DNA of 64,000 nt from an uncultured Acidobacteriota bacterium (GTDB taxonomy: Bacteria; Acidobacteriota; Thermoanaerobaculia; UBA5066), in contig CAWCSP010000004.1 of NCBI GenBank assembly GCA_963798215.1, positions 702,159 to 766,158 on the forward strand. The letters run 5' to 3'. The position numbers and the translations under genes are program-made. Below the pieces are notes generated by a model, which made no database searches, had not been told where the DNA came from, and saw only the letters and a program-made list of their open reading frames with translations. Positions 4,206 to 64,000 of the stretch are shown in pieces. Numbering within the stretch: position 1 is the first letter of the stretch; each line of letters starts with the position of its first letter.

Positions 4206-5657
4206 GTGGAGCCGGAGGAGCAGCCGCCGCCGAGGCTCGCCGACGAGACGCGCTGGTACACCGAGCACGCTGCTCTCGTCATCAGCACGCTCAAGTGGGC
4301 GGTCCTCGGCGCGGCGGCCGGCCTCTGCGTCGGCTTCGGGACGCGCGCGTTCCTGTGGGCGCTCACGGCGTCCGGCCTGTGGGTGAGGCGCGTGACGCCG
4401 GGCGGCGTCCATCCGGTCTGGCTCCTCCCTCTCGCTCTGCCGGTGTGCGTGTTTCTCATCCGGGTGTTCGCGCCGACGGCGCGCGGCCACGGGACCGAGG
4501 CCGTCATCGCGGCGATCCACCGCGAGTCCGGCCGGATTCCGTGGAAGGTCGCGCCGATCAAGCTCCTCGCCACCGTCGTCACACTCGCGTTCGGCGGCTC
4601 GGTCGGGAAGGAGGGCCCCTGCGCCCAGATCGGGGCGGCGATCGCGAGCCTCTTCGCCGACATCCTCCGGCTGAACGACAGCGACCGCCGCCGTCTCGTG
4701 ATCTGCGGGATCGGCGGCGGCTTCGCGGCCGTCTTCGGCACGCCGATCTCCGGGGCCATCTTCGGGATCGAGGTGCTCTACCTCGGCCGGATCGAGTACG
4801 CCGTTCTCTTCCCGTGCCTCGTCTCGGGCATCGTCGCCCACCTCGTCTGCGGCGTCCAGGCGCCGGTACCGGCCCTCCACGAGGGGCTCGGCGGTCTGGG
4901 GAAGTCCGAGCTCGTCGGCCTTTCGATCGTGTTCGGAGCCGTCTTCGGCCTCGTCGCGCTCCTCCTGATCGAGGCGATGCGCGGGGTCGAGCGCGGGCTC
5001 CGCCGCTTCGAGCACCACCCGTACCTCGTGGCCGCGGGCGGCGGCGTCTTCCTCGCGGCCTTCTACTCCCTCGTCGGCGACGCGTATGCGGGGCTCGGCG
5101 TCGCGACGATCGAGAGCGCGCTCGCGGCGACGGGCACGATCGCCGTCCTCGCGTTTCTCTGGAAGATCGTCGCGACGGCCGTCACGCTCGAGACCGGCGG
5201 GAGCGGCGGGATCGTGACGCCGCTCTTTTTCATCGGCGCGACGAGCGGCGCGGCGCTCGCGCACCTCCTGCACCTCCCGACCGGACTCTTCGCGGCCTTC
5301 GGCTTCGTGAGCGTCGTCGCGGCCGCTGCGAACACGCCGATCGCGGCGGCCATCATGGGCATCGAGCTCCTGCCTCGGGACGTCGGCGTCTACGCGGCGC
5401 TCGCCGCGGGGACGGCGTTCCTCCTCGTCGGGCATCGGAGCGTCTACGCGAGCCAGAAGATCGGCCTGTCGAAGTCCGCGGGTCTCGACGTCAGGATGGA
5501 TGTTGCGATCGGCGACCTCACGCGGTCGCAGGTGCAGGTCCGGCCGGGGAGCCTCGTCGACAGGGCCCAGCGCGCCGGGAGCCGGATCATCTCGCGCCGG
5601 CCGGGCGAGCCTCCGTCCGAGAGCGGCTCCGGCGGGGGAACCGGGACGCCTCCGTAA
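4206..5657 (+). CDS. ClC family voltage-gated chloride channel (EriC)
   Basis: GTG start; motifs GSVGKEGP, GIGGGFAAVFGTPI, GGIVTPLFFIGA; multi-TM protein of 483 aa. Confidence 0.85.
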   Translation: MEPEEQPPPRLADETRWYTEHAALVISTLKWAVLGAAAGLCVGFGTRAFLWALTASGLWVRRVTPGGVHPVWLLPLALPVCVFLIRVFAPTARGHGTEAVIAAIHRESGRIPWKVAPIKLLATVVTLAFGGSVGKEGPCAQIGAAIASLFADILRLNDSDRRRLVICGIGGGFAAVFGTPISGAIFGIEVLYLGRIEYAVLFPCLVSGIVAHLVCGVQAPVPALHEGLGGLGKSELVGLSIVFGAVFGLVALLLIEAMRGVERGLRRFEHHPYLVAAGGGVFLAAFYSLVGDAYAGLGVATIESALAATGTIAVLAFLWKIVATAVTLETGGSGGIVTPLFFIGATSGAALAHLLHLPTGLFAAFGFVSVVAAAANTPIAAAIMGIELLPRDVGVYAALAAGTAFLLVGHRSVYASQKIGLSKSAGLDVRMDVAIGDLTRSQVQVRPGSLVDRAQRAGSRIISRRPGEPPSESGSGGGTGTPP

Positions 5658-5725
5658 GGGGCGTGATGGGAAAACCCGCTGGCCGGACGGGTGGGCGCGC
5701 TCTATGTTTGTGATGGAGGCGGACG

Positions 5726-6163
5726 ATGCCGAGGAGCAGGACACTCGCGCTACTGGCTTTTGCCGCAGGGCTCGCTCTTCCGACGCGTCTCGGTGCGGAA
5801 GAAAGGGGCGGCACCTACTTCAAGGTCGCGGTGATGACGGCCGACAAGTACTCGCAGGACGCGAAAACCGTCTTTGCGCCCGATGCTCCGGCGATCTACG
5901 CGGTCTACCGAGTCGTCGCGGCCGGACCCGTGAAGGTCAAGGCCATTTTCTGGGCCGACAGCGTCGAAGGCCTCGACCCCAGGACGAAGCTTCTCGAGAA
6001 GACCGTCTCGATCTCCGAGAAGGGCGAGTTCATGGGGGCCATCCCGGCGCTGAAACCGGCAAACGGATGGCCCGTGGGAGCGTATCGCGTGGAGCTCTTC
6101 ATCGGCGATGCGGTGTCGAAGACGCTTTCCTTCAAGGTCGTGAAAGGCGCCGGCGTTCCATGA
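5726..6163 (+). CDS. hypothetical secreted protein (signal peptide)
   Basis: 145 aa ORF with an N-terminal signal peptide and GC-rich third codon positions. No recognisable family. Confidence 0.5.
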   Translation: MPRSRTLALLAFAAGLALPTRLGAEERGGTYFKVAVMTADKYSQDAKTVFAPDAPAIYAVYRVVAAGPVKVKAIFWADSVEGLDPRTKLLEKTVSISEKGEFMGAIPALKPANGWPVGAYRVELFIGDAVSKTLSFKVVKGAGVP

Positions 6164-6219
6164 GGGACGCATAAGATCTGACGTTCACCGCGAGGTGCGA
6201 ACGTCCGGTGTCAATCGCC

Positions 6220-6582
6220 TCAGGCGGACACCCATGCCTTCGCCGCCGCGAGGTCGGAATTTCGGAAGACCTTCACCGGGCAGGCAACGGGAATCCCGAA
6301 GACCTTCACGGCGTTGGCGACCCAGGAGAAATCCGTGACGACCGCGATCCGCTCGACGGACTTGCGGTTCCTCAGACCGACCGTTGCGTCGTCCCAGAGG
6401 GCCGCGGCCGTGAAGCCGACGAACCCGGTGCCGACCCGATAGAGGAAACGGATCCGCTCGTTTCGCGCGCGCGCCCTCTCGACGGCCGGGAGCAACACGG
6501 ATTCGTAATCGTCTCCCGTGACCCGTCCGCTCGCCGAGACCGCGACGACGTTCTCCGGGAGTCCCTCCATCTGCTGCAGCAT
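6220..6582 (-). CDS. STAS/SpoIIAA-like (DUF3478-type) domain protein
   Basis: 120-aa C-terminal part of ORF 6220..7365(-), starting at ATG 6582 (MLQQMEGLPENVVAVSASGRVTGDDYESVLLPAVERA...). The upstream part of that ORF is in a different frame from the real Hsp20-like gene. Confidence 0.6.
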   Translation of the reverse strand: MLQQMEGLPENVVAVSASGRVTGDDYESVLLPAVERARARNERIRFLYRVGTGFVGFTAAALWDDATVGLRNRKSVERIAVVTDFSWVANAVKVFGIPVACPVKVFRNSDLAAAKAWVSA

Positions 6583-6635
6583 GGGTCCTGCTCCTTTCCC
6601 GGCGTCCGTCGCGGTGGGTCGGGCACGGACGAGCG

Positions 6636-7286
6636 TTACGCGCCGTGCTCGAGCTTGTGGAACACGAGGGTGATCTCGTCCTTGCCCTTGCGGACCTCGA
6701 ACCCGTTCGGATCGGCGCCTCGCGGAAGGGGAAGGATCTTCTCGACGTTTTCGGACGTCGCGACGTCGCTGCCGCCCTTCTTCACGTCCTTGGTCGCGTC
6801 GTAATGGAAGCGGATGCGGTTCGCGTTGACGTCGAACTTGACGGAGTCCTCGTTGAGCCCGGGGATCCCGAACGTCACGGCGACGTTCTTGCCCTCGTCC
6901 GCGACCTTCGTCGTGATCCCGGCGAGGTCCATCCGCTTCGAGAACCAGTCGTGGAACGAGCTGCCGAAAAGAGCGCGCTCGGGAGCGCCGAGCCCGTCCT
7001 CGAGCTGCCTGCGGACCCGGTCGACCTCCTCGAAGGGGTCGAAACGGCGGCGGAAGAAGTCGTCCCCGAACAGCTCGTCGAAGTCCTGCTCGCCGAGCTT
7101 GCCCGTCCGCGCGATCTCCTCGTGCAGGCGCTGCTCCCATCGGTCGAGATCCTGCACCGGCGGGGTCGTCGCGTCGGCTGCCGGCGGGGTTGCAGCGGCG
7201 GCACGGTGCGCGACGATGTAGCCCGCCTCGCCGAGACACGCGACCCCGAGAAGCGCGGCAATCCCCCACGAAGCCCTGATTCCCAT
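6636..7286 (-). CDS. secreted Hsp20/alpha-crystallin-like domain protein
   Basis: 216 aa with a signal peptide; ACD-like C-terminus ...NVAVTFGIPGLNEDSVKFDVNANRIRFHYD...KILPLPRGADPNGFEVRKGKDEITLVFHK. Confidence 0.45.
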   Translation of the reverse strand: MGIRASWGIAALLGVACLGEAGYIVAHRAAAATPPAADATTPPVQDLDRWEQRLHEEIARTGKLGEQDFDELFGDDFFRRRFDPFEEVDRVRRQLEDGLGAPERALFGSSFHDWFSKRMDLAGITTKVADEGKNVAVTFGIPGLNEDSVKFDVNANRIRFHYDATKDVKKGGSDVATSENVEKILPLPRGADPNGFEVRKGKDEITLVFHKLEHGA

Positions 7287-7478
7287 CGGACCCTCCTTCC
7301 GGCGGCCGGGAAGATCGGGCCTCTGCGGCCCGCGTCCGGCCGTCGCAACGTCCCCGGCCCTGCAACGCGCGTACCGGCAGGAATGGCGCGGCGACTCGTT
7401 CTCAAAGGGCGACGGCGACGCGCCGGGTGCCTCGTCCGGCAGCCAGATTGGCGCGCCGGTTTCGCGGCGGAAGAACTC

Positions 7479-7841
7479 CTACGGCTCGACGGCCGGGTGC
7501 CCGAGGATCGCGTCCGCCCGCTCGCGCGCGCCGCGCTCGACGCCCTCGCAGACGATCGAACAGATCCTGAGGAGCTTCAGGTCCGCGAGCCGGTAGACCA
7601 TCCGCGTGCCGTCCCGGCGGCGGTCCACGAGGGCCGAGTCGTGCAGGACGGCGAGGTGCTTGCTGACGTTCGCCTGCGTGCCGCCGACCTCGTCCACGAT
7701 CCGGCCGACCGAGGCCTCTCCGCGCGCGAGACAGCGCAGAATCTTGAGACGCGTCGGTTCGGACAGCGCGCGAAAACGGGCCGCGACCTCCTCGCAGCCC
7801 GCGTCCGTCGCCGGGAAGTGGGGGTCAGCCGCCGGCGGCAT
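7479..7841 (-). CDS. ArsR/SmtB family transcriptional regulator (paralog 2)
   Basis: 120 aa, about 80% identical in protein and about 80% in nucleotides to the 2659..3018 gene, with the same Cys pattern. Its 3' end overlaps the start of the DUF302 gene. Confidence 0.85.
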   Translation of the reverse strand: MPPAADPHFPATDAGCEEVAARFRALSEPTRLKILRCLARGEASVGRIVDEVGGTQANVSKHLAVLHDSALVDRRRDGTRMVYRLADLKLLRICSIVCEGVERGARERADAILGHPAVEP

Positions 7842-8235
7842 GCGCGATCACCCGCTGGAGGCTGGCGGCGACCTCGAGGCCGACGGGCACGAGCTCCGGG
7901 TCGCCGAGGAGCCCGAGAACGGAGCGAGGGTCCATCGCGCGGATCACGGTCTTCCCGCCCTCGACCGACACGGTCACGTTGCACGGCAGGAGAACGCCGG
8001 CCTCCGGGGCCGCGGAGAGCGCCTTGAACGCGGACGGCGCGTGACAGGCCCCGAGAATGAGGTACGGCGGCAGGTCCGCGCCGAGCTTCTTCTTCATCGT
8101 CGCCGCCACGTCGATTTCCGTGAGGACGCCGAAGCCCTCGGCTTCGAGCGCCTTTCGCGCGCGGGCGACCGCGTCGTCGAAGGGAAGGGCCGTCTCGGCC
8201 ACGAGAGCGACGGACGTCTTCGAGGGCTGGGTCAT
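7825..8235 (-). CDS. DUF302 domain protein
   Basis: ORF 7825..8415(-) trimmed to ATG 8235, which has a strong SD (AAGGAGG 5 nt upstream). Protein MTQPSKTSVALVAETALPFDDAVARARKALEAEGFGVLTEIDV... Confidence 0.7.
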   Translation of the reverse strand: MTQPSKTSVALVAETALPFDDAVARARKALEAEGFGVLTEIDVAATMKKKLGADLPPYLILGACHAPSAFKALSAAPEAGVLLPCNVTVSVEGGKTVIRAMDPRSVLGLLGDPELVPVGLEVAASLQRVIAHAAGG

Positions 8236-8291
8236 GGAGTCCTCCTTGTGGGCGACGACCGAGAGGGGCCCGACGGGCCCCCGGGTCACCC

Positions 8292-8501
8292 TCACGTGAA
8301 TCGGCCGGAGCCCGGCCCGCAGGAGCCGCCGCCGTCCGTGCCGCCGGAGCCGCCGGAGCCGGACGCGAAGCGGGACACGAGCTTCTCGATCTTCTCGCTC
8401 CCGCATTCGGGGCACGTCACGCCGAGCGTGTCGAAGGTGACGGAGACGAGCTCCTCGAAGGTCGCGCCGCAGTCGGCGCAGGTGAACTCGTAGAGAGGCA
8501 C
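8292..8501 (-). CDS. FmdB-family zinc-ribbon protein
   Basis: Core (M)PLYEFTCADCGATFEEL...VTCPECGS, two CxxC pairs. GTG at 8501 chosen because GGAGG sits 5 nt upstream. An ATG at 8549 is the alternative start. Confidence 0.6.
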   Translation of the reverse strand: MPLYEFTCADCGATFEELVSVTFDTLGVTCPECGSEKIEKLVSRFASGSGGSGGTDGGGSCGPGSGRFT

Positions 8502-8511
8502 GACAACCTCC

Positions 8512-8787
8512 TCAGGCGTCCGGAGAATCCAGGGACCAGGTGACGACATGCGGACACGGGCCCGTGCCCTGCAGCGCGCGCAGGGCCGCGCGCAGCTTCG
8601 GCATCTCCTCGTCCGCGACGAAGGACATGATGATCGTCGACGTCTTCGGGAACGCGGCCGAGCCGAAGTGGCGGCCCGTGGTGCCGAAGCCGCGCGCGTC
8701 GACTTCCGTGTATCCGGAGACGCCGGCGCGCTCGAAGGCGATCTCGACGTCCTCGCGGCAGGCGGTGCCGGCGAGGACCATCAGCAT
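8512..8787 (-). CDS. P-II-like (GlnB-fold, DUF3240-like) small protein downstream of the RND pump
   Basis: 91 aa: MLMVLAGTACREDVEIAFERAGVSGYTEVDARGFGTTGRH... resembles the GlnB beta-alpha-beta pattern. Its ATG is 2 nt after the RND stop; this is the C-terminal tail of ORF 8512..12237(-). Confidence 0.55.
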   Translation of the reverse strand: MLMVLAGTACREDVEIAFERAGVSGYTEVDARGFGTTGRHFGSAAFPKTSTIIMSFVADEEMPKLRAALRALQGTGPCPHVVTWSLDSPDA

Positions 8788-8789
8788 CT

Positions 8790-11700
8790 TCACGCTTCTT
8801 CCTCCTCCGCGGGCGGGGTGCCCGCGGCCTTGACGTACATGTAGTAGAGCAGCGGGATCACGACGAGGGTCAGGGCGGTCGCGACGACGACGCCCGAGAT
8901 GAGCGCTACCGCGAGGCCCTGGAAGATCGGGTCGAGGAGGATGACGGCGCCGCCCGCGACGAGGGCCAGGGCGGTCAGGACGATGGGACGGAACCGAACG
9001 GCTCCCGCCTTCACGACGGCCTCCTCGAGCGGCTCGCCCGCGGCGAGCTCGAGGTTGATGAAGTCCACGAGCAGGATCGAGTTTCTCACGATGATGCCGG
9101 CGAGCGCGATGAACCCGATCATCGAGGTCGCCGTGAAGAAGACGCCGAACGCCGCGTGCGCCGGCAGGATGCCGATCAGCGTGAGCGGAATCGGCGCCAT
9201 GATGATGAGGGGCGTGACGAACGACCGGAACCACCCCACGACGAGGACGTAGATCAGGACGAGGACGGCCCCGAAGGCGATCCCCATGTCCCGGAAGACC
9301 TCGACCGTGACGTGCCACTCGCCGTCCCACTTCAGGGCGTAGCGGTTCGAGTCGGTCGGGAGCGACGTGTTGAAGATCTCGAGCGGCCGGCCGTCGGGCC
9401 CGCGGAGGGCCGCGATGCGGCTCTTCATGTCGAGGATGCCGTAGATCGGGGCCTCGGCGACGCCCGCCATCTCGGCGAGGACGTACGTCACCGGCTGCAG
9501 GTTCTTGTGGTAGATGAACGGCGCCCGCGTCCCGTCGGTCACGGTCACGAGCTCGCGGATCGGGATGAGCTTCCCGGTCATGGAGGGCACGGTCGTCGCC
9601 AGGAGTCCCTCGAGACTGGAGCGCTGGGAGCGGTCGAGCCTGAGGACGATGGGAACGGCCTCGCGGGCGGCGTCCACGTGGAGGAGGCCCGCGTCCATCC
9701 CGTCGAGCGCGATCCGGAGCGTCTTGACGACGACCTCGGGCGTCACGCCGCTTCGCATGGCCTTCTCGCGGTCGATCGAGACCTCGATCTTCGGAGAGGC
9801 GGCCTCGACGAGCCAATCCGTGTCGACGACGCCAGGGGTCGACTCGAAGATTCCGCGGACTTCCTTCGCGAGCGCGATCCGGCGGCCCGCGTCGGGGCCG
9901 TAGACCTCGGCGACCATGGTCGAGAGGACCGGCGGGCCCGGAGGCACTTCGGTGACCTTCACGTTCGCGCCGAGGCGCCTGGCCGCGGGAGCGATCAGGT
10001 TGCGGATCTCCTTTGCCGTCGTGTGGCTGTCCTTCGACCGCTCGTGCTTGGACGCGAGGTTGACCTGCAGGTCCGCGACGAGAGGCCCCGACCTCAGGAA
10101 GTAGTGCCGCACGAGGCCGTTGAAGTTGAAGGGGGCGGACGTGCCGGCGTAGACCTCGACGTCGGCGACCTCGGGCTGCGTCTTGACGAGGACGGCGAGC
10201 TCGCGCGCGGCCGCGGCGGTCGCCTCGAGCGTCGTGCCCTCGGGCATGTCGATGATGACCTGCAGCTCGCTCTTGTTGTCGTAAGGGAGCATCTTGACCT
10301 TGACGCCCCGGACGACGAAGAGACTGCAGGACAGGAGGAGCAGGACGACGACGCCTCCGAGGAGGGCCCAACGGCGCGCCGGGCGCGTGAGGAGCGGCGT
10401 GAAGAGCTTCCGGTAGAACCGCAGGAGGCGGTCCTCGGCCGGAGCCTCGGCGCCCGCCTGGAAGTGAGCCTCGCCCTTGAGGTGCGCCTCGGCGAACTTG
10501 CGGAAGAGGCGGAACGTGAGCCACGGCGAGACGACGAACGCCACGAGGAGCGAGAAGACCATCGCGGCCGAGGCGTTCACGGGAATCGGGCGCATGTACG
10601 GGCCCATGAGTCCCGACACGAACGCGAGCGGGAGGAGGGCGGCGACGACCGCGAACGTCGCGAGGATCGTCGGGTTGCCGACCTCGTCGACCGCGTAGAC
10701 GGTCGCGAGGCGCGGGTCGCCCCAGCCGAGCTCGTAGTGGCGGTGGACGTTCTCGACCACGACGATCGCGTCGTCCACGAGGATGCCGATCGCGAAGATG
10801 AGGGCGAAGAGCGTGACGCGGTTCAGCGTGTACCCGAAGAGGTACGACGCGAAGAGCGTCAGCGCGAGCGTCGCGGGGACGGCGACGAGGACGACGACGG
10901 CCTCCCGGCGGCCCAGGAACAGCGCCATGAGGACGACGACGGAAAGCGTCGCGAGGCCTACGTGGAAGATGAGCTCGGACGACTTTTCGTCGGCCGTCTT
11001 GCCGTAGTCGCGCGTCTTCGTCACGGTGACGTTCGACGGGACGACGGGGCCCTTGAGGCGCTCGAGGCGCGCGTCCAGGTCCTTGACGAGCTCGACGGCG
11101 TTCGTGCCCGGCTTCTTTGCGACGGCGAGCGTCACGGCGGGCGCATCGTCGCCGGCCTTCGTGAGCATCCACGCGTACTGGGAAGGCTCCTCGGGGCCGT
11201 CCGAGACGGTCGCGACGTCCTTGAGCCAGACGGGCTTGCCGTTCACGACGCCGATCACGGCCGAGCCGACGTCCTCGGCGCGGCGGAAGAGCGAGCCCAC
11301 CTCGACGGGGACCTCGGCGTTGCCCGAGGCGAAGCTGCCCGCCGGGAGGCGCCAGTTGAGGCCCGACAGCGCGCCGTACGCCTGGACGAGCGACACGCCG
11401 TACGAGGCGAGCCGGTCGCGGTCGAACGTCACGTTCACCGCGCGGCGCGCGCCGCCGAGGACGGTGACCTGCGCGACGCGCGGGTGCCGCGTGAAGTCGG
11501 CCTTCACCTCGTCGGCGATCTGCCGGAGCTGCATTGCGCTCGCGTCCTTCGACCAGAGCGTGTAGGCCGCGACGGGCACGTCGTCGATCCCGCGCGGGGC
11601 CACGACGGGCGGCAGGGCGCCCGGCGGAAGGTTCGGCTGGAGCTCGGCGAGCTTCGCGTGGACGCGGACGACGGCCTGGTCGGGGTCCGTCCCGACGAGG

Positions 11701-50118: not shown

Positions 50119-50270
50119 GAGTCCTCCTTGCTGGCTCGGGGCTCTCCGGAGGTCAGGCACGTATCCGAACAGGACACCGGAGCCGACCTCGGGTCAGTGC
50201 TCAACACATGGGGGCACGGCCGCCGCCCGGCCCTGATGCACCTGAATCAGGCCCGCCGACGACACCGCAT

Positions 50271-58658: not shown

Positions 58659-59633
58659 GTGATGGGAATGGAATCGAAGTGGATCTGGAAAGACGGCGAC
58701 CTCGTGCCTTACGAGGACGCGACGCTGCACTTCCTCACGCCCGGCCTTCACTACGGGATCGGCGTCTTCGAGGGAATCCGGTGCTACGCGACGAAGGCCG
58801 GCCCGGCGATCTTCCGGCTCCCGGAGCACATCCGGCGCCTGAGGCTCTCCGCGAAGGCCCTGGGCTTTGACGCGCTGCCGTTCTCCGAGGAGGAGCTCGT
58901 CGAGGCGACGAAAGAGACGGTCGCGAAGAACGGCTTCTCCGAGTGCTACATCCGCCCGATGATCTGGCTCGACGGCGGCGGCTGGAACCTGAACCTCGAC
59001 GGCGGCAAGCCGGCGATCGGGATCGCGGCGTGGGAGTGGAAGAACTACCTCGGCGAGGCGGCGCTCGAGAAGGGCGTGCGGGCGAACGTCTCGTCGTTCA
59101 CGCGCCACCACCCGAACGTCTCGATGACGAAGGCGAAGATCAGCGGCAACTACGTGAACAGCTTCCTCGCGAAAACGGAGTCCGTTCGGCTCGGCTTCGA
59201 CGAGGCGATCATGCTCGACCCGAACGGGTACGTTGCCGAGTGCACGGGCGCGAACCTCTTCGTCGTCAAGGACGGGCGCATCGTCACGACGCCGTCCGCT
59301 CCGATCCTCGAGGGGATCACGCGCGACACGCTCCTCGCCCTCGCGAAGGAGCTCGGCTACGAGGTCGTCGAGCAGGCGATCGCGCGCGACCAGCTCTACA
59401 TGGCCGACGAGGTCTTCGTCTGCGGGACGGCCGCCGAGTGCGTCGCACTCCGCGAGGTGGACTTCCGGACGATCGGGGCGGGCGTCACCGGACCGGTCAC
59501 GCGGGCGCTCCAGAAGGCGTACCACTCGGCGGTGCGCGGCGCGCATGCGCGCTCGAAGGAATGGTGCTCTCCGGTCCGCGAGGCGCGGCGGTACCCGGCT
59601 CCCGTCCGGCTCGTCCGCGCCCGGCGCCGCTGA
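58659..59633 (+). CDS. ilvE: branched-chain amino acid aminotransferase
   Basis: 324 aa; ...GLHYGIGVFEGIRCY..., ...SMTKAKISGNYVNS... (PLP Lys), ...EVFVCGTAAEC... Confidence 0.85.
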   Translation: MMGMESKWIWKDGDLVPYEDATLHFLTPGLHYGIGVFEGIRCYATKAGPAIFRLPEHIRRLRLSAKALGFDALPFSEEELVEATKETVAKNGFSECYIRPMIWLDGGGWNLNLDGGKPAIGIAAWEWKNYLGEAALEKGVRANVSSFTRHHPNVSMTKAKISGNYVNSFLAKTESVRLGFDEAIMLDPNGYVAECTGANLFVVKDGRIVTTPSAPILEGITRDTLLALAKELGYEVVEQAIARDQLYMADEVFVCGTAAECVALREVDFRTIGAGVTGPVTRALQKAYHSAVRGAHARSKEWCSPVREARRYPAPVRLVRARRR

Positions 59634-59642
59634 CCGGCCGGG

Positions 59643-60104
59643 TCAGTGCATCCGTTTGACCCTGGGCTCCGTGCGCGGCGCGCGGGCCTTCAGAACCCTG
59701 CGGTCCGGATGCGTCGGGCGGTCGATGCCGCGGCCAAGGATCTCGAGAAGGTCGGACGTCGTGACGATGCCGACCAGGCGTGGCGTCCGGCCGGGCTGGA
59801 CGACGGGGAGGCAGCTGATGTTGCGGCCCCGCATGAGGTTCGCGGCCTGGCGGACGGACATCTCGGGGTCGGCGGTCACGACGTGCGGCGACATGACGTC
59901 GGCCACGCGGTGGTTGCGCCGGAACTCGTCCTGGCTCGGGGCCCCGAGATCGTGCGAGGACACGACGCCGACGAGCGCGGCGTCGTCGTCACGGACGACG
60001 AGGTGGCGGACGTTGAGGGCTTTCATGGTCGCGAACGCGGTTTCCGCGGTCTCCCGGGCCGCGATCGTCCTCACGTCCGGAGTCATCACGTCCTGAACGC
60101 GCAT
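59643..60104 (-). CDS. CBS-pair domain protein
   Basis: 153 aa with two CBS motifs (...VRHLVVRDDDAALVGVVSSHDL..., ...ISCLPVVQPGRTPRLVGIVTTSDLL...). Confidence 0.6.
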   Translation of the reverse strand: MRVQDVMTPDVRTIAARETAETAFATMKALNVRHLVVRDDDAALVGVVSSHDLGAPSQDEFRRNHRVADVMSPHVVTADPEMSVRQAANLMRGRNISCLPVVQPGRTPRLVGIVTTSDLLEILGRGIDRPTHPDRRVLKARAPRTEPRVKRMH

Positions 60105-60205
60105 GGACCCTCCTTACCGGCGCACCTGGCGCGCCTGCATCCGTCTGGAAGGTGGGTCCGCGCGCCCTCCCGCGCATGGAGCAGATGAATCAGGGCGCCG
60201 GACGC

Positions 60206-61864
60206 CTAACGGGACGCGGTCTTCACGGCCACCTTGCCGTGGAGGACCTCTCCGGCTTTCACCTGCGCCTGGCGGGACAGGTCGATCGACTCGGCGAGGA
60301 TGCGGGCCATCTCCTGCGGGGCGTGGAAGCCCATGGAGTTCTCGGCCGCCACCATGTCGAGGCGCCACTGCGCCGCGCGCTGCAGCTCGCCCAGCTCCCT
60401 GATGGCCGGATCCTTGTCCACGACCGTGCGCCACGCGGCGAGGAGGTTCGCCTTCGTCTCGGCGGCCAGCTTCTTGTCCTGGTCTTCCTTGGCGAGCTTC
60501 AGGAAGTCAGCGTCCTTTTCGAGCGTGGCCTTCGCCTTCACGGCCGCGGCGGGGCGGTTCTGCTCGTCGTACGGCGCCCGCACGGCCACGATCGCGTCGA
60601 TCATGGCGACAGCCGCCTGGCCCGCGCGCGTCATGAGCGCGAAGTGCCGGTCCTGGATGGCCTCGACGCGGCTCTTGAGCTCCTCGTCGCTGTACGGGTG
60701 GCACGTGGCACACGAGCGGTTCGCCGAGAGGAGCGGGCTTCGCACCCAGTGCTCGGAGATCTTCTGGGCGCCATCGCGGCGGTACGACATGTGGCAGTCG
60801 GCGCAGGCGACGCCGCTCCGGGCATGGATGCCCTGGCTCCACATCTCGAACTCGGGGTGCTGGGCCTTGAGCACCTCCATGCCGGTTTCGGCATGCGTCC
60901 AGTCCTTGAACCGGGCGCCCTTGACCTGCATGCCGTCGTAGACCTTCTCCATGTCCTCGACCTTCAGTCCCTCGCCCCACGGGAAGAAGATCGTCGTGCC
61001 TTTGCCGCAGAAGTACTCGACGTGGCACTGGCCGCAGACGTACGAGCGCTTCTCCTGCCGCGTCGCGTCGATGTTGGGGTCGTACGGGTGGGCGCGGTCG
61101 CCCTTCCGCCAGCGCTCGATGCTCGGCAGATGCGGCACGTCGGCCTTCGAGGCGGCCAGCTTCTGGATGCCGGCGATGAAGGCCGGGCGCGTCACGCGCA
61201 GCTCCATCGACTTCGGGTCGTGGCAGTCCACGCACGAGACCGGGTGGACCTTGCCGCCGGTCACCTGCTCGAGCGCCTTGTGGGCGTCCCAGTAGCCCAT
61301 CTCGCCGACCTTCTCAAGCCCCTTCTGCAACTGCTCGGCCTCGCTCGCCTGCGGCGCCGCTTCCTTCCCGAGCTTCTTGTAGAGCGGGATGATCGACGCG
61401 TGGCAGTGGAGGCAGTTGCCCGACTGCTTGGCTTCGGCCGGCACGTTGCGCTTCGTGTTCTCCTGGTCGGTCAGCATGAACGCGTGGCCCCGGCGGTCGC
61501 GGTAGTCGACCGCGAAGAGGTACCCCGCGAAGATCCGCGTCAGCCACGGGTCGCGCGCGGCCTTCTCGGGCGGCACGAGGCCCTCGGCCCCGCCCCAGCC
61601 TCCGCCGTACTTCGTGTGCGTCGGCTCGGACGTGCGCTTGTACCCGTCGTACTCGCGCGGCCAGTTTGTGCCCCACTTGGCCGGATCGACGTCGTTCTCC
61701 GTCACCTCGGCGAGCTTGACGTAGGAGTTCTTCGCCTCCTGCTTGCGCTCCGTGATGTTGACGAGCAGGGCGGCGGCGACGAGGGCGACGAGGGCGAAGA
61801 CGCCCGCGACGAGGGCGATGAGGAGCCCGCTCTTTTTTTTGGGCCCGGCGTTGTCTGCGGTCAT
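60206..61864 (-). CDS. nrfA: ammonia-forming cytochrome c nitrite reductase, pentaheme NrfA
   Basis: 552 aa with an N-terminal TM anchor and five CxxCH motifs (CLHCH, CVDCH, CGQCH, CADCH, CATCH); Ca-site residues. Confidence 0.9.
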   Translation of the reverse strand: MTADNAGPKKKSGLLIALVAGVFALVALVAAALLVNITERKQEAKNSYVKLAEVTENDVDPAKWGTNWPREYDGYKRTSEPTHTKYGGGWGGAEGLVPPEKAARDPWLTRIFAGYLFAVDYRDRRGHAFMLTDQENTKRNVPAEAKQSGNCLHCHASIIPLYKKLGKEAAPQASEAEQLQKGLEKVGEMGYWDAHKALEQVTGGKVHPVSCVDCHDPKSMELRVTRPAFIAGIQKLAASKADVPHLPSIERWRKGDRAHPYDPNIDATRQEKRSYVCGQCHVEYFCGKGTTIFFPWGEGLKVEDMEKVYDGMQVKGARFKDWTHAETGMEVLKAQHPEFEMWSQGIHARSGVACADCHMSYRRDGAQKISEHWVRSPLLSANRSCATCHPYSDEELKSRVEAIQDRHFALMTRAGQAAVAMIDAIVAVRAPYDEQNRPAAAVKAKATLEKDADFLKLAKEDQDKKLAAETKANLLAAWRTVVDKDPAIRELGELQRAAQWRLDMVAAENSMGFHAPQEMARILAESIDLSRQAQVKAGEVLHGKVAVKTASR

Positions 61865-61894
61865 GACGTGCTCCTATTCGGGTGGTGACGAATC

Positions 61895-62365
61895 TCAGCG
61901 CGGGTGGCCGACCGACGCGTGGCAGCGGACGCACGAGACGTCGCCGCTTTGGGACATCGAGTCGACGAGATCGGCGTGGCAGCGGCGGCAGTTGGCTTCG
62001 ACGACCGCCGTGCTCTCGGGGCGGGCGCGGATCACGTCCGGGTAGCCGCCCATCGTGAAGGCCCACGAGTGGTGCCAGCCGTTGAGAGCCTTGACGGCAT
62101 ATTTCGAGACCGGCCCGGCCGGGGTGTGGCAGTCGTTGCACGTGGCGGCGCCGTGGTGGGGCCCGGTCAGCCAGCCGGCGTAGTGCCCGGCCATCACGTG
62201 GCAGTTGGCGCACGTTGCGGGGTCGTTTCCCATGTAGGACGAGCCCTTGGCGTACCAGAAGGCGTAGCCGCCGACCCCGAGCGCCAGCCCGGCCGCGGCG
62301 GCGGCGAGCGTCAGGGGGACCGGGAGGAGAGAAAACCCGCGGCTCGACCTCATGCGCGCCCGCAC
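61895..62365 (-). CDS. nrfH: NrfH (NapC/NirT family) tetraheme membrane quinol dehydrogenase
   Basis: 156 aa with an N-terminal TM helix and four CxxCH motifs (CANCH, CNDCH, CRRCH, CVRCH). Confidence 0.85.
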   Translation of the reverse strand: MRARMRSSRGFSLLPVPLTLAAAAAGLALGVGGYAFWYAKGSSYMGNDPATCANCHVMAGHYAGWLTGPHHGAATCNDCHTPAGPVSKYAVKALNGWHHSWAFTMGGYPDVIRARPESTAVVEANCRRCHADLVDSMSQSGDVSCVRCHASVGHPR

Positions 62366-62408
62366 AACGTAGGGGCGCCGGCAATTTCCCGTCGATGAGA
62401 CAGGTGAA

Positions 62409-62927
62409 TCACGGCCGGAAGCCGTTCGCGACGAGCGGCTTGGCGTCGGTCTGGGGGACGTGACAGGTGGTGCAGACGAACCGGCTGCCTGCGATCTCGG
62501 CCCGCTTTACGGTCGGGGCGTTCCGGAGGTCGACGTAGTGACTCGCCGGGGCCTGGACGGGTCCGTCGGCATCGGGCTTGTCCATGGCATGACACGTCAG
62601 GCAACCGTTGTCGGCGCGCGTGATCGGGAGCATGCCGTCGACCGTGTGCGGGATGAGCGGCGGCGCGAAGTCGAACGGGCGGGGGAGAACCTTGCCGTCG
62701 CCGGGGTCCTTCGCTGAATACTCGTACGAGCGCGGCGCCGGAACGCCGGTGACGGGCGACTTTTCGAGGCCGAGGCTCGCGTCCGGGATTCCGGAGACGG
62801 AGGAGGGGACCGAAGATTTCTTAGAAGGTGAAGGGGTCGATGCGCAGGCGACGAGAGCCGCGGCTGCGGCGAGGGCAGCGCTCGCTGCGCACGCCAAGGC
62901 AAGTGGAGATCGGGTCGCTGATCGCAT
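62409..62927 (-). CDS. napB: periplasmic nitrate reductase dihaem cytochrome c subunit NapB (lipoprotein-type signal)
   Basis: 172 aa; LVACAS lipobox-like signal; two haem motifs CLTCH and CTTCH with the spacing typical of NapB. Confidence 0.8.
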   Translation of the reverse strand: MRSATRSPLALACAASAALAAAAALVACASTPSPSKKSSVPSSVSGIPDASLGLEKSPVTGVPAPRSYEYSAKDPGDGKVLPRPFDFAPPLIPHTVDGMLPITRADNGCLTCHAMDKPDADGPVQAPASHYVDLRNAPTVKRAEIAGSRFVCTTCHVPQTDAKPLVANGFRP

Positions 62928-62992
62928 CGTGGCCTGCCTTTCTTCTCTCTACCTTCTAAGCTCTTCTCTTTTTCTTCTTCTTTTCTTTCTCA
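62813..62992. repeat. motif copy in napB 5' coding region (62818-62832), inverted partner accttctaag (62951-60), and a 52-nt pyrimidine-only tract (purine-only on the mRNA) between napA and napB
   Basis: tcttctctctaccttctaagctcttctctttttcttcttcttttctttctca at 62941-62992, read from the sequence. Confidence 0.5.
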
Positions 62993-64000
62993 GGCCTTCG
63001 TCACCTTCACGGCGCACTTCTTGAAGTCGATCTGCTTCGAGATCGGGCACGTCGCGTCGAGGGTCACCTTGTTGATGAGGATGGACTCGTCGAACCACGG
63101 GACGTACACGAGGCCGCGCGGCATCCTGTACCGGCCCGCCGTCTCGACGGAGACCTGGATCTTCCCGCGGCGCGACTCGATCCACGCGATGTCGCGGCGC
63201 TTGAGGCCGCGCTGCGCGGCGTCCTTCTCGTGGATGTAGAGGAGCGCGGCCGGCATTGCCGCGTTCAGCTCGGGGACGCGCCGCGTCATGGTCCCCGAGT
63301 GCCAGTGCTCGAGGACGCGGCCCGTGCAGAGCCACAGGTCGTAGACTGCGTCGGGCACCTCGGCCGGAGCCGCGTACGGCCGGAAGAAGATCTTGGCTTT
63401 CCCCGCGAGCGACACCTTCTCGGAGCCGTCCGGTCTCTCGAGGTCCCCCTTCGGGAGCGACTTCATCGCCTTGCCGTAGAAGTCGAAGCCAGCGCCCTTC
63501 CTTGCGTACGGGTCGTACGCCTCGTTGAAGCGCCAGGGTGTCTCCTTGCCGTCGACGACGGGCCACCTCAGGCCGCGCACGTCGTCGGCGAGGTACCGGT
63601 CGAACGGGGCGAGGTCGTGCCCGTGGCCGCGCCCGAAGCCCGCGTACTCCTCGAAGAGCGCCTTCTCGGGGAACCACGTCGCGCCGAGCTGCGCGGCCGT
63701 CGCATTCGCGTGGCCCTTCGCGATCGGATCAGGCCAGAGGAACTTCCTGCTGCCCGCCGTCGCGAAGAGGACGTCGTAGAGCGTGCTGTCGGGCGTGTAG
63801 CCCATCTTGACGGCGTCCTCGAGGACCGAAGGGAGCCTGCCGTCTGCGAAGCCGTCCGCCTTCAGGCCGGGGACCGGCTGCTCGCCCCAGACGTCCCGGA
63901 GCTTGAAGCGCTTGGCGAACTCGAGGATCTGCCAGACGTCGGTCTTCGCGTCGCCGGGCGCGGGCACCTGCTGGCGCCAGAGCTGCGTGCGGCGCTCGGA
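62990..64000 (-). CDS. napA: periplasmic nitrate reductase catalytic subunit NapA; C-terminal ~336 aa only, gene continues beyond the window
   Basis: C-terminus ...[41 protein letters not shown] closely matches the NapA C-terminal signature. The M at 63967 in the ORF track is internal. Confidence 0.9.

Follow-up and report, generated by a model that had tools for sequence, protein, structure and literature searches.

Nitrate-to-ammonium genes napDAB and nrfHA of an uncultured Thermoanaerobaculia bacterium: probably two respiratory cassettes side by side

Where do the electrons of the periplasmic nitrate reductase Nap come from when an organism has NrfH but lacks both NapC and NapGH? According to a 2025 review, this electron supply is poorly understood (PMC12285233). 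Here, we consider the question at a locus of an uncultured soil member of the Thermoanaerobaculia (Acidobacteriota), lying at the end of a stretch of 64,000 nucleotides of contig CAWCSP010000004.1 (hereafter, the window), where napA, napB, nrfH and nrfA follow one another on the minus strand. Among the described systems, that of Campylobacter jejuni (napAGHBLD plus nrfHA) is similar in combining NapAB with NrfHA in the absence of NapC, and in having an NrfA with five CxxCH haem motifs (PMC12285233). However, its nap operon includes NapG and NapH and is separate from the nrf operon, whereas the window is devoid of napGH and has nap directly upstream of nrfHA; in addition, Nap of C. jejuni depends on the QcrABC complex (PMC6195509). 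Shewanella oneidensis (napDAGHB, nrfA) provides a likeness to the idea that NrfH might be a hub of electron transfer, since one tetrahaem dehydrogenase of the NapC/NirT family serves both NapB, which is the preferred acceptor, and NrfA (PMC5114592). But CymA, as this dehydrogenase is called, acts as a general hub, its gene lies apart from nap and nrf, and Shewanella has no NrfH, while the window protein is NrfH by a curated hidden Markov model (HMM) and its gene is paired with that of NrfA in every relative.

Wolinella succinogenes and Desulfovibrio vulgaris, with nrfHA(IJ), share with the window the order nrfH-nrfA and an NrfH with four CxxCH motifs, the methionine of CxxCHxM and a conserved lysine. 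They differ in the first motif of NrfA, which is CxxCK in these organisms and CLHCH here, and in Asp89 of NrfH, replaced here by His; moreover, no nrfI-type lyase gene is seen beside the window nrfA. Clusters consisting only of napDAB, without napC or napGH, are found in Geobacteraceae (Oryzomonas), nitrate ammonifiers that also have nrfAH (PMC11633192). There, napDAB and nrfAH are treated as separate clusters (PMC11633192), whereas they abut on one strand here, and the window NapB is a predicted lipoprotein with a 62-nt purine-rich leader. As to Escherichia coli (napFDAGHBC), its NapD, NapA and NapB are homologous to those of this locus, but it has dedicated quinol-oxidising modules, NapC and NapGH, together with NapF, none of which occurs here, and its Nrf uses NrfBCD instead of NrfH. 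The gene families, the all-CxxCH NrfA, napDAB-only clusters and the hypothesis of a shared NrfH are already known. We found no description in the literature of napDAB and nrfHA lying directly next to each other on one strand, of a clade of lipoprotein NapBs that lacks a dedicated dehydrogenase, or of the purine-rich leader. It is to be noted that napDAB plus nrfHA is about the smallest natural gene set for the question of Nap electron supply, and that sister genomes with nap only, with nrf only, with both in opposite orientation, or with napA deleted serve as natural controls. With such a minimal set and such controls in one lineage, the question becomes testable by heterologous reconstitution or by metatranscriptomics. 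As judged from family membership, the locus would also place a complete periplasmic nitrate-ammonification route in the Thermoanaerobaculia, an abundant uncultured group of soil and wastewater.

The genes of the locus are as follows:

62990..64000, minus strand: 3′ part of napA, comprising the C-terminal 335 codons and the TGA stop codon (62990-62992); the gene continues past the window end
62928..62989, minus strand: napA-napB spacer of 62 nt, 87% purine, 42% GC against 70% GC in the window
62409..62927, minus strand: napB, dihaem cytochrome c subunit of 172 aa
61895..62365, minus strand: nrfH, 156 aa from GTG 62365, or 152 aa from ATG 62353, the start called on public contigs
60206..61864, minus strand: nrfA, pentahaem cytochrome c nitrite reductase of 552 aa with an N-terminal hydrophobic anchor or signal
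59643..60104, minus strand: gene of a CBS-pair protein (153 aa; PF00571), 3′ of nrfA

The original prediction, made from the letters of the window, had described napA-napB-nrfH-nrfA as a contiguous module on one strand. Both the layout of the four co-directional open reading frames (ORFs) and their profile matches agree with this: the spacers are only 62 nt (napA-napB), 43 nt (napB-nrfH) and 30 nt (nrfH-nrfA), with no coding sequence between the genes and hence no napC, napD, napG or napH among the four. The haem counts proposed there were also borne out by motif counting, with five CxxCH and no CxxCK in NrfA, four CxxCH in NrfH and two in NapB; no other ORF of the window has at least two such motifs. 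When the families were checked by HMM, NapB was assigned to PF03892 and NrfH to TIGR03153, as had been expected. To look upstream of napA, beyond the window, we used a metagenome contig of the European Nucleotide Archive (ENA), L001, which is 99.3% identical to the window and encodes exactly the same NapB. Toward napA it carries, in order, genes for a Crp-family regulator, the quinol NO reductase qNor, a CLC channel, a MarR protein, RIC (ScdA/hemerythrin) and NapD (PF03927, 62.3 bits). Here, napD stands directly before napA and overlaps its start, and no napC, napG or napH was found in 7 kb. Searches by tblastn with NapC, NapG, NapH and NapF of E. coli gave no match in L001 or in 19 related loci, and altogether no dedicated quinol dehydrogenase (NapC or NapGH) was found in the window, in 10 kb upstream of it, or in about 15 related nap contexts. 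Two window ORFs with ferredoxin motifs, considered as candidates for NapG or NapH, turned out to be LutB and an FAD-linked oxidase with an Fe-S domain. The proposal of a single NapC/NrfH-type dehydrogenase is thus shown for about 74 kb, namely the window and the upstream contig. Since napC and napGH are missing upstream of napA and both NapB and NrfH fall into the expected families by HMM, the compact gene set for nitrate-to-ammonium reduction is real.

On L001, napA (7175-9939) is split into two calls by frameshifts, and the A-run of the purine-rich spacer is 1 nt shorter; both the window and a short-read contig, L002, are intact where L001 is frameshifted. With 8 indels separating L001 from the window over 11.6 kb, these differences are probably indel errors of that assembly.

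Then, is this gene set one respiratory unit, or are two units merely placed next to each other? We compared about 95 related loci, designated by L numbers, among which L001 and L002 represent the window genotype and L083 is identical with L006. They fall into five configurations:

napDAB-nrfHA co-directional: the window with L001 and L002; L086, a second species from the same sample; L004
napD-napA-napB divergent from nrfHA: L083 (= L006), L087, L088, L097/L098
napDAB without nrfHA: L089/L090, with the same RIC and ilv/leu neighbourhood; L091; L093
nrfHA without nap: L003, L022 (NrfA 94% identical)
napA missing, frameshift in the napB signal peptide, nrfHA intact: L084, L095, L085

These configurations indicate that nap and nrfHA have been gained, lost and inverted independently. 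While nrfH stands directly before nrfA in 82 of 82 NrfA-encoding loci (L001-L082), nap adjoins nrfHA in only four of the 82 (L001, L002, L004 and L006). We therefore read the locus, with a probability of roughly 0.7, as two self-contained respiratory cassettes lying side by side within a nitrogen-oxide gene island. The first cassette, (RIC-)napD-napA-napB, would comprise a molybdenum nitrate reductase exported through twin-arginine translocation (Tat), its chaperone NapD, and a dihaem NapB predicted to be lipid-anchored. The second, nrfH-nrfA(-CBS), would pair an all-CxxCH pentahaem nitrite reductase with a tetrahaem menaquinol dehydrogenase anchored in the membrane, and would be expressed from an activator-dependent promoter of its own in the 43-nt gap between napB and nrfH. 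Together, they would convert nitrate to nitrite and then to ammonium in the periplasm, a route that we take to be encoded on the basis of family membership. In the genotype lacking napA (L084 7790-7830; L095 9904; L085 1853), codon ~77 of napD runs straight into the final 14 nt of the purine tract. Since three independent assemblies (ENA, JGI and Logan) give the same sequence, the genotype is a genuine variant within the population.

That nrfHA may have its own regulation is suggested by the gap upstream of nrfH, which contains the following:

62396..62411, minus strand: conserved 16-nt element TGATTCACCTGTCTCA upstream of nrfH, whose first three bases are the napB stop codon
62366..62395, minus strand: putative weak nrfHA promoter, with a −35-like TCGACG (62390-62395), an 18-nt spacer and a −10-like TACGTT (62366-62371)

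When eight genomes are aligned, the element stands out as an invariant block, equally far from nrfH in each and with poorly conserved flanks, even though its upstream neighbours in these genomes are of three kinds: napB, a divergent napD, or no nap and unrelated genes. The version in L007 is a perfect palindrome, TGATTC-N4-GAATCA. Given such conservation, the element is a candidate operator or activator site serving a promoter specific to nrfHA. The end of the −10-like hexamer is 12 nt away from ATG 62353 of nrfH, which has no Shine-Dalgarno sequence, and a TAnnnT hexamer is found equidistant from the start codon in L003, L022, L086 and L087. A sigma-70 consensus scan of 59500-64000 found no promoter above threshold and no intrinsic terminator was found there either; because both hexamers score below that threshold, the promoter is to be taken as putative. 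From this arrangement, we infer that nrfHA would be an autonomous, activator-dependent unit within a nitrogen-oxide regulon. Another TGATTCA-type site in the window, at 50249, lies upstream of an unrelated Exo_endo_phos gene and was set aside.

A separate palindrome, ATGAC-N4-GTCAT, recurs in intergenic regions of the related loci, namely 5′ of RIC/napD, in the divergent nrfH/napD region, and 5′ of qNor and of an operon encoding a Rieske protein, cytochrome b and NosZ; none occurs within the 64-kb window. Its sites are:

L001: 6119-6132
L083: 4790, 9127
L087: 3561, 4957, 10906
L088: 4941
L089: 5145
L003: 9385
L093: 752

This palindrome is a candidate operator of the nitrogen-oxide regulon, possibly bound by the Crp-family regulator encoded beside qNor or nrfH.

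Several observations weigh against two independent cassettes. If only the closest NapB clade is regarded, nap adjoins nrfHA in most contexts (the window, L086, L084/95, L004, L083, L087, L088 and L097/98), and this adjacency could reflect functional coupling rather than mere clustering. The argument for an nrfH promoter is drawn from conservation, with hexamers below the sigma-70 threshold, and there is no terminator-like site between napB and nrfH, so that the two genes may be co-transcribed by read-through. Furthermore, L004 appears to lack the napB-nrfH spacer together with its conserved element, and the napB stop codon overlaps a TTG start of nrfH (cTTGAcc). It would be a truly fused operon, though this contig has other oddities. 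Its napA (L004 3113-5166) has four frame-keeping internal deletions that leave about 390 codons, which is either an assembly artefact or a real reduced operon.

Let us turn to the proteins. The NapA fragment of the window matches positions 541-830 of NCBIfam NF010055 (9e-131) as well as Pfam Molydop_binding, and, as the original prediction had pointed out from its end motif, its C-terminus aligns with that of E. coli NapA, with 50% identity over 335 aa. The full napA on related contigs has 919 codons, with napD on its 5′ side, and encodes a twin-arginine signal (TRRELLK) and the domains Molybdop_Fe4S4, Molybdopterin and Molydop_binding. NapB matches PF03892 (98.6 bits against a cutoff of 25.1), contains the haem motifs CLTCH and CTTCH, and is 33% identical to NapB of E. 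coli. Its residues 1-40 are predicted to form a lipoprotein signal peptide with the lipobox LVAC and Cys28, after which comes a linker rich in Ser, Pro and Lys. Cys28 does not vary among 16 of 16 NapBs of the clade (from the set of proteins P0001-P0019), in which the lipobox takes the forms LVAC, LLAC and similar; a lipobox is present in 16 of 18 NapBs of the clade as compared with 2 of 14 and 13 of 85 more distant NapBs. A metagenome scan for this NapB clade returned five loci. The nearest NapB from a named species, that of Campylobacter upsaliensis (P0036), also has a lipobox. NapB is thus predicted to be lipid-anchored, and a tethered NapB fits electron uptake at the membrane, although it does not discriminate between donors.

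NrfH scores 166.1 bits against TIGR03153, whose curated cutoff is 134.2, and 37.4 bits against Pfam Cytochrom_NNT (cutoff 24.1), as a membrane-anchored tetrahaem quinol dehydrogenase of the NapC/NirT family with the N-terminal hydrophobic stretch LLPVPLTLAAAAAGLALGVGGYAFWY. The equivalents of D. vulgaris Met49, the methionine of CxxCHxM, and Lys82 are conserved. The position of Asp89, on the distal side of haem 1, is occupied by His both here (GWHH) and in 88 of 89 aligned relatives; it is a trait of the whole clade, unlinked to nap. Since this His occurs in all 88 NrfH proteins paired with an all-CxxCH NrfA, the alignment suggests a different environment of haem 1 throughout the clade. No sequence change that would point to specialisation of NrfH was found when those from nap-linked and nap-less genomes were aligned. 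NrfA matches PF02335 (1e-111; 374.4 bits, cutoff 24.1) but falls below the narrower NCBIfam equivalogs for enterobacterial or formate-dependent NrfA (243.6 vs 595 and 186.9 vs 692.5). Its haem motifs are, in order, CLHCH, CVDCH, CGQCH, CADCH and CATCH. The canonical CxxCK, which provides the lysine ligand of the catalytic haem 1, is accordingly replaced by CLHCH, and because a first CxxCH is common to 87 of 87 relatives with at least 49% identity, we place this NrfA in the known all-CxxCH subclade, already described from Campylobacter and Anaeromyxobacter (PMC12285233). The closest NrfA genes are those in metagenome-assembled genomes of Thermoanaerobaculia (Acidobacteriota), and then those of Anaeromyxobacteraceae. 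Geobacter lovleyi NrfA (6V0A) is among the best solved relatives, and the active-site stretches RGH, CHVEY and HPEFE can be aligned with those of 6V0A and of the 8BCX nitrite reductase, as far as an alignment can tell.

If the two cassettes are self-contained, which protein donates electrons to NapB? None of the napDAB clade members has a dedicated quinol dehydrogenase. Because the clade never carries napC or napGH, napDAB may be regarded as a plug-in module whose NapB is fed by an existing quinol-oxidising complex of the host. The NapB of Shewanella accepts electrons promiscuously and interacts with CymA, the bc1 complex and TorC (PMC5114592). For the window NapB, NrfH would be the sole candidate in cis, and a complex of Rieske protein, cytochrome b and a multihaem cytochrome c the main one in trans. 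We consider the latter at least as likely as NrfH, while neither reaches even odds and the remainder goes to other routes.

The best of these candidates, which we hold only tentatively, is a Qcr-like Rieske/cytochrome b complex with a membrane-anchored multihaem cytochrome c, which would feed NapAB as in Campylobacter and Wolinella and leave NrfH to serve NrfA only; nitrate reduction would then be electrogenic. Sister genomes contain an operon for an Fe-S flavoprotein, a Rieske protein, cytochrome b, a membrane-anchored pentahaem cytochrome c and NosZ (L083 9177-16120; L089 1-5106), a candidate quinol:cytochrome c module for reduction of nitrous oxide (N2O) and possibly of nitrate. It adjoins RIC-napDAB in L083 and L089/L090 and shares ATGAC-N4-GTCAT with it, and its cytochrome b family is abundant in Thermoanaerobaculia. 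Deletion of qcrABC abolishes nitrate respiration in C. jejuni (PMC6195509), and it is to Campylobacter that the nearest NapB of a named species, also with its lipobox, belongs. Even so, the operon is absent from the window and from 10 kb upstream; where it does occur it stands beside nosZ and may serve N2O reduction only, and Campylobacter still needs NapGH, which is absent here.

A second matter concerns the spacer between napA and napB. It had been described as a purine-only tract of 52 nt, but it actually measures 62 nt with 87% purine, and its longest pure run is 31 nt (62961-62991, including GA of the napA stop codon). Of the 55 bases that run from the stop codon to 62937, 51 are purines, with CTT and T as the interruptions, and a second run of 14 nt (62937-62950) ends in a likely ribosome-binding site, GAAAGG. 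One could imagine a translational function for this spacer, as an unstructured standby or enhancer platform by which the dosage of NapB is set relative to NapA, a rather unlikely but not negligible idea. Its 31-nt run is the longest of the 64-kb window, the runner-up being 19 nt, and the spacer is predicted to be unpaired. The sister species L086 also has a purine-rich spacer of 62 nt, with a conserved core GAGCTTAGAAGG...AGAGAAGAAAGGCA and the 3′ part kept, so that composition and length persist despite a change of the internal sequence; and in Shewanella the partition of electrons is affected by the dosage of NapB (PMC5114592). Against such a device, most clade members have merely 12-17 nt between the two genes, as in L089 (TGA-GAAGGAAACGCC-ATG), L091 and L093, and in several the two genes form a single ORF that leaves no spacer. 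The predicted fold does not differ from that of shuffled sequences (z-score +0.93), and an Rfam scan of 59500-64000 gave no match in the spacer, only a chance microRNA match elsewhere. Weak tandem repeats with periods of 3 and 11 fit slippage, and one breakpoint of the napA deletion in the sister genotype falls within the tract, which suggests instability rather than function. Most likely, the spacer arose by slippage expansion of a short (12-nt) purine-rich ribosome-binding region such as is seen in relatives, and any effect on napB translation would be secondary. No sequence could be matched to the motif copy that the original prediction saw in the spacer. GAGAAGAAAGG, the best candidate, occurs once exactly and four times with 1 mismatch where 0.95 copies would be expected, a mild over-representation, but its other copies are not placed consistently with respect to genes. 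Nor does the purine run have the significant mirror symmetry that triplex DNA would require (19 of 31 positions vs 17.6 in shuffles).

To come back to the donor, NrfH itself might be a CymA-like hub, oxidising menaquinol and feeding both NrfA and, via the lipid-anchored NapB, NapA, so that one dehydrogenase would drive the whole path from nitrate to ammonium. We regard this as unlikely, though it is not without merit. About 74 kb contain no protein of the NapC/NirT family other than NrfH, nap and nrfHA adjoin in several species of the lineage in either orientation, and NapB is predicted to be tethered to the membrane. There are also precedents: CymA of S. oneidensis serves NapB and NrfA (PMC5114592), and in C. 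jejuni NrfH has been proposed to donate electrons to NapB in a napG mutant, as far as the work of Pittman (2007) is represented in later papers (cited in PMC6195509 and PMC3475470). However, napDAB of the same clade occurs without adjacent nrfHA and nrfHA occurs without nap; the two are divergent in L083, L087, L088 and L097; NrfH proteins are alike in nap-linked and nap-less genomes; and nrfHA keeps its own conserved upstream element. In the NrfHA complex of D. vulgaris (2J7A), moreover, the exit haem of NrfH is ligated by a lysine of NrfA, which we count against a hub. Finally, substitution between NapC and NrfH is judged unlikely in the 2025 review (PMC12285233).

A different arrangement of the napA-napB junction is seen in sister genomes (L083/L006, L087, L097/L098, L096 and L004), where napA has no stop codon and is in frame through the retained core of the NapB signal peptide and the lipobox into napB. 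The continuous ORFs are:

L083 (= L006): 5094-8345
L087: 5250-8507
L097/L098: about 7193-10420
L096: 59-559, on a 1.2-kb contig
L004: 3113-4726
L088: 7973 onward

They have 1086-1088 codons and the junction KKCAVKV[TS]KV-ATA[LV]LAAVLA...AC, except that the junction of L004 is different and that of L088 differs by one extra G; in L083, L087 and L097, nap is divergent from nrfHA. The junction and the NapB part of these three genomes are under purifying selection, because the ratio of nonsynonymous to synonymous substitution rates (dN/dS) is 0.13-0.19 at dS 0.35-0.41. Public annotation of the records shows only a short NapB and no NapA gene. When long NapB-containing proteins were sought library-wide, no full-length NapA-NapB or NapB-NrfH fusion appeared among the 150 best representatives; a single match of 326 aa (P0255) is an error-ridden fragment at a contig edge, again with a stop-less napA-napB junction. 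Nor did the literature searched contain a report of a natural NapA-NapB fusion. The continuous frame may give one polypeptide or two proteins, and both a molybdoenzyme exported by Tat and a c-type cytochrome would have to mature from it.

It is tempting to combine these points into one scheme, in which lipoprotein NapB docks on NrfH as a CymA-like hub for reduction of nitrate to ammonium, and in which the lineage was selected for tight coupling of NapA to NapB at their junction, by a purine standby platform in the window species or by an in-frame fusion via the retained lipoprotein signal peptide in its sisters; we consider such a scheme improbable. Least of all do we believe that nap is decaying in this lineage and that the module is functionally nrfHA only: the sister genotype without napA and with a frameshifted napB, the split napA of L001 and the internally deleted napA of L004 could be read in this way, but the 335 C-terminal napA codons of the window form an open frame that matches NapA along its whole length, the short-read contig L002 has the same sequence over this part, napB of the window is intact, the 8 indels of L001 fit assembly error, and napA of L086 is intact with 919 codons.

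As for the gene on the other side of nrfA, that of the CBS-pair protein, it is located directly 3′ of nrfA in L001, L003, L004, L006, L022, L083, L084, L086, L087, L088, L095 and L097. As all Thermoanaerobaculia relatives that we examined have it in this position, the gene seems to accompany nrfHA and is probably part of the nrf cassette.

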